Source: a virus
Direction: 5' to 3' (one strand)
IMG/VR virus record: IMGVR_UViG_3300042868_004707
Location: 32,001 to 96,000 of that record
Length of the DNA: 64,000 nt
The notes beneath the pieces are model-generated. The model was not told where the DNA came from, searched no databases, and worked only from the letters and a program-made list of their open reading frames with translations. A program made the position numbers and the translations under genes. Each line of letters begins with the position of its first letter. The stretch's first letter is position 1. Below are positions 3,001 to 61,188 of the stretch, piece after piece.

Positions 3001-6000
3001 AGCTTTAATTTTACCAAGTCTAAAATCAGCAAAGTCATCAGCAATTCTTTCCTTAATCATTCTATTTGTTACAGTAGGATCTGAATAATCATACTTCTTA
3101 CCAGATTGTCTATCTGTAAACTGTCCTTGTTGATTTCTGAATTCATTTAATATAGCTTCTCTTTCACTCTCGCTTAAGAATGAAGCCCATATTCCTTCAA
3201 ATATCTCATGATATTCTGTACCTTTTAATCCACCACGAACAAACTTAGCAACACCTTCTTCAAATACACCCCAAGCTTCTTCATTCTCATTCACTTGAAT
3301 CATTCTATCCAAAATTTGAAATGGAATACCAGAAGCATTTTTAGCATGCCAAGCTTTAAACTCTTCAAGTTCTGCATTAGTCATTCTATCAGAAACATCT
3401 GCTCCAACCATTCTGAATTCACTAGGACCATTTTTACCTCTTTTTCTTTTAGATGGGTCGTATGGAGCTTCAGCAGGTTTGCTTCCTTCTAAAGCAGCTA
3501 ACTCAGCATTATAATTAGCTTCAAGCTCTTCTGATACTTGTATCCAACCTCCTTTATATTCTTTACCTTTATAGAAACCAGTTTCATATACTTCTTTAGA
3601 AGCTGCTCTTATCTCTTCCTCTTTTCTTTTTTCTATATCAGCTTTCTTAGCTTCTATATCAGAAACTTCTTCTACAGTTGTAGTAGGAGCTTTTTCTAAA
3701 GCAGCTAACTCATCTAATAAAGCTTTTGGATTTTCTGAATAGTCAGCCTCAAAAGGAATTTCTTTTTCATCACTAAAGCCACTAGTAGGTCTTTGTTTAT
3801 AATCTACAACTAATGAATCAGTAGTTCCATCAGGATATACTATTTCAAAAACTTCACTACCTCTACCATACTGATCTCTTTGAGATTTTACAAATGTCAC
3901 CTTAGTACCATCTTCAGTAAACTTAACTGTTCCTGGAGTTACTGTACTAGAGAAACCTAAAGATCTTCCTTCTATACTTTTAAGTTTTTCTTTGATTTCA
4001 GTTTTTCTATCTTTCTGAACAGGAGAAGCTTCTGCAACTACAGGAGCTGGTTTAGAACCTTCTGCTTCTAATGTTTTACCTAGTTCACTTTCAATTCTTA
4101 ACTTAACAAACAGTTTAGCTTTTTCTTCGTTTGTAGATTCATCTAAATCTATTGTTACAATGTTTTCTGGAAGAGCACGTAAGTTACCATCAACAGCTGC
4201 AATCAATTGTGGCTCTGTGGAAAGTTTAGTAATTGTTTCATTATTTTTAACATCTACAACAATTCTATTATCAGGTGTGATTGTTCCTGTAAATAATACA
4301 GGACCTGTGTTAAATTCACCAAAAGTGTTCACCTTTTCTGAATTCAATTCATATTTACCAATAACAATTCCTCCTGACACTGTTGGTTGAGCAGGAGCTG
4401 GTTTTGGTTTAGCTGGAATTTTATCATAAGGAAGAACATTCCCATCTGTAATATATGAATACTTCTGTTTATAAGAAGCTTGTGTTTGTGTTGGAGCAGC
4501 TGTATGTGTTATTAATGGAGTTTCTTCTGTTGATCTTTTAGAACCATCAGGATTTTTTCCAGATAATAAATATGATTGATAGTTAGGCCATTGAACTTTT
4601 GTTATGTTTCCATCTTTATCAGCTCTATATTCTGTAAATGTTTTAGACGTACCTAATTTAAGAGTGGTGTTATTCGCTGTAATAAATGCATTTTGTAATA
4701 CATCCATTATCTCTTGTTTACTTTCAGAAACTTTAGACAATGGAAATGCTTTACCACCAACATTAAATGTCATGTTAATAGTATCTATTCCTATTTGACT
4801 AGGTGTCTTAGTATCTCCTTTAGATTTCCAGTAAAGAACATTCTGTAAGAAGTTAGAATACGCATAGTTAATCTTAACAGGTTTACCTGTATTAGATTGC
4901 ACAATCATCTCTTTAGATATAGCTTCAACTAAACTGAATATAGTGTTTGCTTGAGAGTTTGTTAAATTTTTATTATTCAAATAATCTAAAAGATCTCCAT
5001 ATTGAATTAATGTTGTTCCTGCAGGAAAAGATAATAACTCTCCTTTATGTTGAATCTTTCCTGTTGTAACAATTTGAATAAGTCCTTCTGTGTTAGCAAT
5101 AATGTCTTCAGCATTATCACCAAGAATAACTCCTACATTATTATTTTCTCTTACACCATTAATTTTATTCTGTCTAGGAATTCCTCTAGAGATGTCAAAT
5201 GAATATGGGGTGTATCCTTTTTGTTTGAATACATCAGCTCTGAATATTTTATATGCTTCAAGAGCTCTTTCAGCTTCTTCTTCTTGACCAGCTCTCACTT
5301 TTACATACCCACCTTCTGTAATAGGTTTAGCAGAAGTCATTGTTTCAAAGATCACCTCATCAAGTATTGTAGGATTTTCATCTCCAACCTTTGATAACTT
5401 TTCTCCTTTTTCATTAACAAAGAAATCTCCTTCAGGTGTTTGTAATATAAACACCTGTGCCATAAATCCTAATTCAACATTAGTTTGATCTGCTGTTAAA
5501 GGCTCTGTAATATTCTTTTCATAAGAAAGCTGTACAATTCCTTCTAAGCCAAGATCTTTAGCATTGTTAGGAGTGACAATAATCACTTTATACTTGTCTC
5601 TGTTGTTAAAGAATTTTAGATTGTTTAAAAACTTTCTTGCTCTAACAATATGTGGAAGTTTATTTTTAACCTCTCCAGCTGTATCTTCAGAAGGAGTAGA
5701 AGTTGATAAGTATAAAATACTAGCATCTTTTCTTTGCTCTTCAGATCCTACAATATCTCCTTCTTTAGGATTGATTGTAACCACTGTAGCAGAACCTTGT
5801 TCCAACTTCTCTTGTTGTTTATCAAGAGTTTCTTTATCCTTTGCTAATTTCTCTTCTTCTGTTTGTAACTTCTCATATCCTTTAAGTGCAGAAACATTAA
5901 TGTTTTGAATGTTACCAGCTAAGTCTTCCACCTTCACTGTACCATCTTCATTTAATCTAATAACCTTCACTGTAGTTAATTCTGAGAAATCTACATTAAG

Positions 6001-34402: not shown

Positions 34403-34437
34403 AATGTAGTTATTTAATAATATTTGGTTTATTTTAG

Positions 34438-34511
34438 TTGCGTGGGAAGGACTCGAACCTTCGACCTCTGGATTATGAGTCCAGCAAGCTAACCAACTGC
34501 TCTACCACACG
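34438..34511 (-). tRNA. tRNA-Met(CAU), initiator type
   Basis: Full cloverleaf CGTGTGG...CTGGA-CTCATAA-TCCAG...GAAGG-TTCGAGT-CCTTC-CCACGCA-A; C1:A72 mismatch and A11:U24; CCA not encoded (ACTA). Confidence 0.92.
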
Positions 34512-58222: not shown

Positions 58223-58329
58223 AGTCAGGTGGCGGAATTGGTATCGCACTCCACTTAACTGGAAAGTATTGTTTCGACACAATTAATCAGGTGAAAGGCA
58301 CCATACAGGTTCAAATCCTGTCCTGACTA
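58223..58329 (+). ncRNA. Second tRNA-Leu-like RNA with non-canonical central domain
   Basis: Acceptor AGTCAGG/CCTGACT, D arm GCG-GAATTGGTAT-CGC, T arm ACAGG-TTCAAAT-CCTGT, A73; about 56-nt central insert. Confidence 0.75.
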
Positions 58330-58477: not shown

Positions 58478-59063
58478 AACCTACTGTAAAAATAATGGGG
58501 CTAACAGGTTTTGACAGGTTACCAGTAATTAATACAATCAGCCAGAGAGATAACTGTAAACTAAGATGAATATAATTAAATGGCAAAAACACAAACAGTG
58601 TAGTATCTCAAGGAGACAACGCACAAATCGTAGCTAACATGACTGTAGTACATAACATCTTAAATGGTGGTATTAAAGTTAAATCAAATGACATTATTGA
58701 ATTTGAATTAGCAGCCTAAATTAAAGATTTCTCTGTTAGATTAAACAGAGTGGTGGTTTCTCGATTGTTTATCAGTCGATCCTAGTTGTATGATACTCCA
58801 ACTTTAAAACCGTATCAAAAAAGCTGTATAAATTGTATTTTTGAAAATAATTTTGGACGAGGGTTTGGAAATTGGACCCATTACATAGGAATATGTAATT
58901 AAAAATTGCTTGAATTGCTGGAACGCTAAGTTACACCTGCGAGGGTAATATGCCAATCAGCAGCCAAGCTCACTGGAAGAAGTGAGAAGGTTCAGAGACT
59001 AGGGACACTACGGTGAGCCCACAGTAAGCAACATCTAGAACAGATGATGATATAGTCCGATCC

Positions 59064-59483
59064 CTACAGAAATGTAGGAAGAAAGAATAGTCTCTCGTAG
59101 GCTAACTTTCTTGTAACTTGTTTGTCTGTGTATTTACCATTACGAATGGTAACTGCATCATGGTATTTTAAGACTGTATTTATACGATGTAACTTTTTAG
59201 GATGATGAGAATCCAGAAGTCTACAAAGTTTCAAACATTCTTGATTACTATTACAAGATAAAGAATAACCAATATTATGGTTTTTTTTTCTAGAAGGTTT
59301 TTTTGACATATAAGTTTTAATACTATGTTCATCTAACAAATATTTTTGAATCTCTTCAAGAATTGTTATATAACAGTTAGTAAAATCTATTTTGATGCAT
59401 TTATAAGTATCATTTTTAGAACTTTTACTCATAGTAATTGAACCATCAGCATCAAAAAAGCCTGAAATGTATTGTAGTGTCAT
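59064..59483 (-). CDS. Single-motif LAGLIDADG homing endonuclease, antisense inside the intron
   Basis: YISGFFDADGSI, IDFTN...ILEEIQ; 139 aa. Confidence 0.88.
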   Translation of the reverse strand: MTLQYISGFFDADGSITMSKSSKNDTYKCIKIDFTNCYITILEEIQKYLLDEHSIKTYMSKKPSRKKNHNIGYSLSCNSNQECLKLCRLLDSHHPKKLHRINTVLKYHDAVTIRNGKYTDKQVTRKLAYERLFFLPTFL

Positions 59484-59506
59484 AGTGATTATGTTTTAGA
59501 TATGGT

Positions 59507-59538
59507 GTAAATCTACAACATGTCCTAGACATATGCAA
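59507..59538 (-). promoter_or_regulatory. Intron-internal antisense promoter for the LAGLIDADG gene
   Basis: TTG-N20-TAGATTTAC, 24 nt upstream of the ATG. Confidence 0.6.
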
Positions 59539-59618
59539 GTAAAGTGACAACAAGTTATTAACAAAATGCAACTCCCTCTAGCTCCACTAGTCTCGCATTG
59601 TAAGACTATTTACCATTT

Positions 59619-59653
59619 TCCCTACACATGTCTCAAGTGTGTAGGGATTTTTT
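59619..59653 (+). terminator. Rho-independent terminator after tmRNA
   Basis: TCCCTACACAT-loop-GTGTGTAGGGA-TTTTTT. Confidence 0.8.
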
Positions 59654-59683
59654 AATTTGTATTAATCCTTAATAATAAATAAA

Positions 59684-60492: not shown

Positions 60493-61188
60493 ATGAAAAA
60501 CATACACATATTACCAACACCAAAAGATTTTGAAGTTTGGAAAGATATTATTGGATATGAAGGATTATATCAAGTAAATGAGTATGGCAATGTAAAAAGC
60601 CTGTCAAGAACAATTACAAAAGGTAATATTACTTATGTAACTAAAGATAGGATTTTGAAGCAATCTGTAGATTCTGTAGGTTATCCTTATGTAAATTTAT
60701 CAGACTATAAAAAACAAAAGACATTTAGAGTACATCAATTAGTTGCTGTAGCTTTTCTAAATCATACTCCTGATAAACATAAGGGATTAGTTATAGACCA
60801 CATTGATGGGAATAAACTAAACAATATGACTACTAATCTTCAGTTGATTACTAACAAGAAAAACACAAGTAAAGATAGAAAAAACAAAACTTCTAAATAC
60901 ACAGGTGTATCTTTGCATAAACAAAGTAATAAATGGTTAGCTCAATTTAAAGAGAATGGTAGAGTTAAATACTTAGGTATTTTTAAAACTGAAGAAGAAG
61001 CAAGAGATGCTTATAATACTTCACAAGAACAAGACAAGAATAAGTATAGTGAGGAAGAAGTTTATGATATTGTACAAAAAGCAATAGAAGAAAATAGCAG
61101 TAAACAACTTCACTTCTTTGATGGAGGATATTCGAATCCTGTTTATAGTAATTTAAAAATATGGTTTGAAAAATTTAAAAAGAAATAA
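60493..61188 (+). CDS. NUMOD4-HNH-AP2 endonuclease, chimeric termini
   Basis: EVWKDIIGYEGLYQV, VHQLVA, IDHIDGNKLNN...NL, SKYTGVS...YLG.F.TEEEA. Confidence 0.88.
   Translation: MKNIHILPTPKDFEVWKDIIGYEGLYQVNEYGNVKSLSRTITKGNITYVTKDRILKQSVDSVGYPYVNLSDYKKQKTFRVHQLVAVAFLNHTPDKHKGLVIDHIDGNKLNNMTTNLQLITNKKNTSKDRKNKTSKYTGVSLHKQSNKWLAQFKENGRVKYLGIFKTEEEARDAYNTSQEQDKNKYSEEEVYDIVQKAIEENSSKQLHFFDGGYSNPVYSNLKIWFEKFKKK

Follow-up and report, generated by a model that had tools for sequence, protein, structure and literature searches.

The window analysed here, a 64,000-nt stretch comprising bases 32001-96000 of a virus record of 115,249 bp (a complete genome with direct terminal repeats), codes for terminase, portal, major head and virion proteins. 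On its plus strand we found a tmRNA gene in two pieces. Exon 1 (58497-58865, 369 nt), as delimited when ARAGORN was given the spliced sequence, comprises the 5ʹ strand of the acceptor (GGGGCTA), a pseudoknot region, the frame for the tag and the T arm's 5ʹ half (GAGGG TT). Exon 2 (59569-59587, 19 nt, placed by reading of the sequence and by ARAGORN) supplies the remainder of the T-loop (CAACT), the 3ʹ strands of T stem and acceptor (CCCTC and TAGCTCC, respectively) and the discriminator A plus a single C; it encodes the tmRNA's CCA end incompletely. When the sequence is read with 58865 joined to 59569, a T arm GAGGG-TTCAACT-CCCTC and an acceptor GGGGCTA/TAGCTCC with the G3:U70 pair are obtained, as the original prediction had claimed. 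ARAGORN agreed with this claim, calling a 388-nt tmRNA with its start at 58497 solely for this exact join; four joins shifted by one base gave no tmRNA, nor did the unspliced DNA, and the raw window gave tRNA-Met alone. Since the exact join is required, the intron corresponds to 58866-59568 (703 nt). A terminator-like hairpin followed by a T run lies 3ʹ of the gene (59619-59657, plus strand).

The tag reading frame was located at 58615-58719 (plus strand) by ARAGORN and by homology to the tags of relatives. According to homology, the tag reads (D)NAQIVANMTVVHNILNGGIKVKSNDIIEFELAA, ends in ...EFELAA and is followed by TAA, whereas ARAGORN places its start later, at 58666 (GGIKVKSNDIIEFELAA). 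The tags of relatives (A/DNAQIEANM...AA) align in frame with it and end in VAA, LAA or VAVAA, and the indels between alleles are multiples of three. Across the tmRNA family (loci L012-L127) the tags are conserved and unusually long, 24-35 aa (e.g. ANAQIEANMNKVFSLLGEEVAVAA), and the start given by ARAGORN is often too late. Judging from sequence similarity, the tmRNA gene belongs to a family widespread in phages of Flavobacteriia: at least 119 viral contigs contain the 5ʹ block conserved in this family, and in nearly all of them the gene is uninterrupted. One member, the tmRNA of Cellulophaga phage Calle_1, has been annotated before (PMC8776804). The tmRNAs of Calle_1, phi14:2 and Flavobacterium phage FpV4 share with the gene in the window the 5ʹ block CAGAGAGATAACTG...AAACTAAG and the AGCTGTATAAA block, as well as long tags ending in AA and the G3:U70 pair; the genes of these three phages are, however, uninterrupted, whereas the one in the window is split. 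All three (RF00023 scores of 46-87 bits) can be aligned over their full length with the spliced RNA. The Rfam tmRNA model RF00023 did not match the interrupted gene even at E 1, and it gave 72.2 bits for the intronless allele of contig L022, the exon 1 of which is 95% identical. ARAGORN finds no tmRNA in two of six spliced relatives. No SmpB gene was found in the phage; thus, the function of its tmRNA would rely on the SmpB of the host.

The intron (58866-59568, plus strand), which is delimited by Rfam, the ARAGORN join and an empty site in L022, lies between nucleotides 2 and 3 of the T-loop (TT|CAACT), that is, at subsite 3. The base at position -1 is U58865, which pairs with G58875 in P1 (GGGUU/GACCC), and the last base of the intron is G59568. 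P10 could be formed by the guide UUG (58872-58874) and CAA of exon 2. The Rfam model Intron_gpI (RF00028) matched 58855-59079 on the plus strand with 95.3 bits and E 2.7e-23 over P1-P9 (model positions 1-253; gathering score 50). A covariance-model check of the original prediction was thus positive for the group I intron. We placed the ribozyme core at 58861-59079 (plus strand) from the Rfam match and from covariation among 22 sequences, with P1 at 58861-65/58875-79, P3 at 58906-11/59026-31, P7 at 58997-59001/59053-57 and P9 at 59063-68/59073-78; P2, P4-P6 and P8 are also present. An extra hairpin, P7.1 (59002-59020), is located between the 5ʹ strand of P7 and the 3ʹ strand of P3. In this respect all predicted parts of the 703-nt intron, i.e. 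the U:G pair of P1, the P10 guide, P2, P3, P7.1 and the terminal G, were recovered.

When the hand-drawn core, including the P3/P7 pseudoknot, was laid over 22 related introns, 95.1% of cells were paired and 37 of 55 core pairs showed compensatory change. None of 500 shuffles scored as high, and slid controls were 32-42% paired. The pairs of P7 never vary among the related introns, hence P7 is uninformative on covariation. Beyond the core, RNAalifold on six sequences proposed a long-range helix with its 5ʹ strand (GUAACUUGU) at 59113-59121 and its 3ʹ strand (ACAAGUUAU) at 59550-59558 (plus strand), the latter ending 10 nt short of the G that terminates the intron. This helix would close off the insertion of the nuclease gene described below. 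The six close copies vary on one side of it only; in diverged relatives a helix is possible at the same position with another sequence, with weak energy z-scores. The 85-nt 3ʹ tail of the intron is almost invariant in the six close copies.

Five viral contigs (L005-L009) carry the same nuclease at 79-100% identity; in each, the core of the intron is on the other strand and tmRNA exons flank it. Comparison of these relatives showed paired changes on the two sides of the intron: the T stem changes from GAGGG/CCCTC to GTGGG/CCCAC and to GGGAG/CTCCC, the acceptor from GGGGCTA/TAGCTCC to GGGGGTG/CACCTCC, and the P1 guide tracks the exon (GACCC to GACTC). Compensatory changes 700 nt apart in the DNA are expected if the exons are joined in the RNA. 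An alternative is that the interrupted gene is a dead one, with inefficient splicing and a non-functional phage tmRNA. Nothing speaks for this directly; RNA-library contigs of relatives (four runs) are unspliced across both junctions and none has 58865 joined to 59569, but such contigs cannot show splicing and may be DNA. On the other hand, the T stem, the acceptor stem and P1 have all been kept paired by compensatory changes across the intron, 21 of 22 related introns have the U:G pair at the splice site, and the tag keeps its ...LAA/VAA stop ending with indels in multiples of three. We therefore regard a dead tmRNA gene as highly improbable. An assembly artefact, considered separately, was ruled out, as the layout is common to six or more independent contigs.

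The intron contains a gene for a LAGLIDADG homing endonuclease on the opposite strand (59064-59483, minus strand, 139 aa), located after P9. The assignment is based on Pfam LAGLIDADG_1 (PF00961; E 7.5e-7, 30.4 bits against a cut-off of 23.1). The TAG stop codon of the gene (59064-59066) falls inside the 5ʹ strand of P9 (59063-59068), an arrangement that had been noticed in the original prediction and that we can now confirm. The protein has a single motif, ISGFFDADG, in which D11 and D13 do not vary among 22 homologues. The frame of 139 codons is intact and without indels in all six copies, dN/dS is 0.12-0.36 and the changes are mostly at third codon positions, a pattern which indicates that purifying selection acts on the gene. 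The nuclease family comprises at least 228 homologues, nearly all of 134-141 aa.

An AlphaFold model of the 139-aa protein (pLDDT 90.5) had I-Vdi141I and I-CreI as top matches, and I-TnaI was also among the matches. The protein is like I-CreI, I-Vdi141I, I-TnaI and I-CvuI, homing endonucleases of group I introns, in its fold (alpha-beta-beta-alpha-beta-beta-alpha), in having one motif and in a length within about 140-165 aa; Foldseek against I-CreI-type enzymes gave a probability of 1.00 and TM of 0.55-0.65 at a sequence identity of 14-20%. As for the homodimers of the I-CreI type, a dimer formed via the motif helix was predicted: the two-copy model scored 0.60 against 0.00 for the best control, three runs shared 100% of contacts, and the interface consisted of residues 1-14, the LAGLIDADG helix, with a partner pLDDT of at least 86. 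Among proteins of solved structure, the mark of 0.60 is attained by 20 of 30 that are pairs and by 1 of 23 that are single chains; the pass may stem from resemblance to the solved I-CreI-type dimers. A homodimer would suit a pseudo-palindromic target such as T-arm DNA. In contrast to I-CreI-type genes, the gene in the window is opposite to its intron, and its putative target is the T-arm DNA of tmRNA. We also weighed a function of the protein as a maturase; the evidence speaks neither for nor against it.

Within a 19-kb block (about 45 kb to 64 kb of the window) all genes but that of the nuclease are on the plus strand, and hence the nuclease gene cannot use neighbouring transcripts. A promoter-like site begins 55 nt upstream of its ATG, within the intron, and consists of TTG (59538-59536), a 20-nt spacer and TAGATTTA (59515-59508, minus strand). 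This site was part of the original prediction, and it turned out to be conserved in relatives. In Bacteroidetes the consensus promoter consists of a -33 element, TTTG, and a -7 element, TAnnTTTG, separated by some 19-21 nt; the -7 box in the window has A as its final base, in place of the G of the consensus. When sites up to 110 nt upstream of the ATG were counted, 11 of 21 independent lineages had TTG-N19-21-TAnnTTT(G/A), whereas 0.31 was expected from shuffles, and none of 3000 shuffles reached 11. Conservation of the -33/-7 site thus supports it as a candidate promoter. TAnnTTTG is not enriched upstream of the other genes of the phage, meaning that the phage's own genes lend no support to a promoter of the Bacteroidetes type. 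A scan for sigma-70 promoters, the wrong type for Bacteroidota, returned four sites against 7.6 expected and is therefore uninformative.

To the proposal that the intron is mobile, related phages provided a direct comparison. L022, from a 114-kb contig, shares synteny with the window (88-97% identity); its alignment stops after 58865 and continues from 59569, leaving out exactly 58866-59568, a precise empty site. Between copies, the intron core is 93-100% identical and the adjoining exon segment 55-62%; for the window against L007-L009 these values are 93-99% and 55-59%, and exon 2 is 62-76% identical. A core far more alike than its exons is expected after recent spread between diverged alleles. 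In the survey of presence and absence, about 7 of the at least 119 contigs (about 6%) have the intron at subsite 3. This low share could be taken to mean that the intron is a fixed, immobile passenger which still splices, with the nuclease gene an unexpressed or non-cutting relic, and the departure of the -7 box from the consensus would fit with a relic too. However, the nuclease has been kept at exactly 139 aa in six diverged copies under the dN/dS given above, and its catalytic-motif residues do not vary among the homologues; moreover, a near relative has a precise empty site, and the contrast between core and exons points to recent horizontal spread. We consider an immobile passenger quite unlikely. 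The sequence comparisons (empty site, conservation of core versus exons and purifying selection) support the mobile intron of the original prediction.

In a wider survey we collected 24 viral and 2 bacterial loci with a homologous protein. In 20 loci the nuclease is antisense to the core, with its stop codon abutting or overlapping P9. In two loci (L145, 1554-2196, and L147, 1538-2193) the nuclease is in sense orientation directly after the core and has its own TTG-N-TAnnTTT site about 35 nt upstream. In two others (L149, 408-1213, and L151, 945-1740) the nuclease gene is free-standing and convergent, 10 nt after an intact tmRNA gene. The T-loop in L149 and L151 reads AGTCGGAG, and this may be a variant resistant to cutting by the nuclease.

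The latter loci raise the question of the origin of the antisense layout. It could be a by-product of capture, in which a T-loop intron enclosed a convergent, free-standing nuclease gene downstream of the tmRNA gene, and would then have no regulatory meaning. The homologues found free and convergent in L149 and L151 would fit such a starting state, exon 2 is merely 19 nt, hence the 3ʹ end of the gene adjoins the T-loop, and the sense copies of L145 and L147 tell that the orientation can flip. In the protein tree (midpoint root), however, the free-standing forms are nested within the intron-borne clade and are not basal, and in 20 of 20 antisense copies the stop codon keeps its place at P9 and a closing helix has been retained; both are suggestive of an integrated design. 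We find capture possible but rather doubtful as the source of the layout; it is also compatible with a mobile intron carrying an antisense nuclease, and not exclusive of it.

The homologous introns occupy more than one T-loop subsite. Twelve cases are at subsite 3 (the window and eleven distinct viral loci), L148 and the two bacterial loci are at subsite 7, and L138, L141 and L152 are at subsite 8. The P1 guide is adapted to each subsite, and in the nuclease protein tree (midpoint root) subsites 3, 7 and 8 are interleaved. The two bacterial loci, L128 and L129, are ssrA genes of Flavobacteriaceae; they are the only tmRNA genes of their genomes and code for the usual GESNYALAA tag. Their introns resemble the one in the window (core 78% identical, nuclease 62-64% aa identity, likewise antisense) but are placed at subsite 7 instead of subsite 3. 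Among the Flavobacteriaceae genomes sampled, the core was found in 1 of 401, which was the reference genome itself.

A group I intron in the T-psi-C loop of tmRNA was reportedly described by Williams in 2002, with Clostridium botulinum as the founding case. The intron in the window is like those of bacterial intron-form tmRNAs in its T-loop position, P7.1, the U:G pair at -1 and the terminal G. The original prediction spoke of a few bacterial tmRNAs with such introns, which was too low: PMC11915505 reports 883 unique intron-form tmRNA sequences from 21 phyla, at T-loop subsites 2, 3, 7 and 8, with subsite 3 in Bacteroidia only (9 genomes). According to the same source, LAGLIDADG genes are present in 36, and among the first 23 found, 4 are after P9, as in the window, and 19 in P7.1. 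In contrast to the bacterial cases, the host gene here is that of a phage, and the intron has 703 nt, whereas PMC11915505 gives no intron above 700 bp. The text and table of PMC11915505 that could be consulted are silent both on intron-form tmRNAs of phages and on which strand the nuclease genes occupy, and our literature search found no description of an intron-form phage tmRNA or of the nuclease-gene strand in tmRNA introns.

The closest parallel to the antisense layout comes from the nuclear rDNA group I introns Dsq.L2066 and Dir.S956-2, which contain antisense homing-endonuclease genes (PMC9548176). As in the window, the nuclease gene occupies an extension of P9 and runs opposite to the ribozyme; theirs is expressed from an internal promoter. 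Those introns are eukaryotic and of group IE, with His-Cys box nucleases, pol II, polyadenylation and spliceosomal introns, whereas the one in the window is a phage intron with P7.1, a LAGLIDADG gene and a putative promoter of bacterial type. In the literature searched, a backwards nuclease gene with an internal promoter is described solely for eukaryotic rDNA introns.

Taken together, the sequence evidence indicates that the locus is very probably a phage tmRNA gene interrupted by a mobile group I intron, which carries an antisense homing nuclease with its own promoter and has spread by homing. From this evidence we infer splicing, the activity and target of the nuclease, use of the promoter and tmRNA function. 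In the proposed course of events, the tmRNA gene would be transcribed from the plus strand and the intron would fold into P1-P9 and P7.1, with the helix 59113-21/59550-58 returning the 3ʹ splice site to the core across the 420-nt gene. Self-excision at U58865 and G59568 would restore the T arm of the 388-nt tmRNA, which could then work with the SmpB of the host. The 139-aa LAGLIDADG protein would be made from the opposite strand, from the Bacteroidetes-type -33/-7 promoter in the 3ʹ tail of the intron. Its homodimer would cut the intron-less, pseudo-palindromic T-arm DNA of tmRNA genes in co-infecting phages, and repair from the intron-bearing copy would let the intron spread (homing). The suggestions, made in the original prediction, that the nuclease cuts the ssrA of the host and that the antisense mRNA modulates splicing are speculation.

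The element in the window is thus a phage member of a kind already catalogued in bacterial tmRNA genes, and the catalogue of intron-form tmRNA genes is now extended to phages. Three aspects appear to be undescribed so far: the occurrence in a phage, the antisense layout, which is conserved and has a putative promoter of its own, and the presence of one nuclease family at subsites 3, 7 and 8. Of the four T-loop subsites known, this one family occupies three, which is relevant to the published inference that invasions took place several times independently. A wider reading, which we put forward tentatively and with considerable doubt, is that phage tmRNA genes are the main reservoir of a T-arm lineage that moves among subsites 3, 7 and 8, re-tunes its guide and occasionally jumps to host ssrA; the backwards nuclease gene with its own promoter would be uncoupled from transcription of the tmRNA, and its mRNA may pair with the pre-tmRNA. 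If phages were indeed such a reservoir, some of the catalogued 'Bacteroidia' intron-form tmRNAs may be phage-derived or located on phage contigs. A nuclease aimed at the T arm could act in competition between phages or in a conflict of phage and host over ribosome rescue. The basic understanding of group I introns and of tmRNA is unchanged by these observations.

Several further features were noted in the related contigs and around the locus. L118 (9371-10116) has an intron at the same subsite, with a core 74% identical; the antisense ORF in it is unrelated, is at least 173 aa long, had no Pfam match and has a stop codon that overlaps P9. The same contig contains a Hatchet ribozyme (3304-3454, 75.1 bits). 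In L150 (600-1014) a GOLLD RNA (328 bits) adjoins an intron-split phage tmRNA, the exon 2 of which was not located. The tRNA-Met (CAT) gene of the window (34437-34511, minus strand) lies within the block of structural genes. A 107-nt tRNA-like gene at 58223-58329 (plus strand) matched the Rfam tRNA model with 46.3 bits and has the anticodon loop CUUAAC(U) and a variable region of about 36 nt with two hairpins; it was not called by ARAGORN, is deleted in L005 and is present in L006. Finally, about 900 bp 3ʹ of the tmRNA gene, at 60493-61188 (plus strand), there is a free-standing endonuclease gene with NUMOD4, HNH_3 and AP2 domains, a second selfish nuclease nearby, in a region that differs in the intron-less L022.
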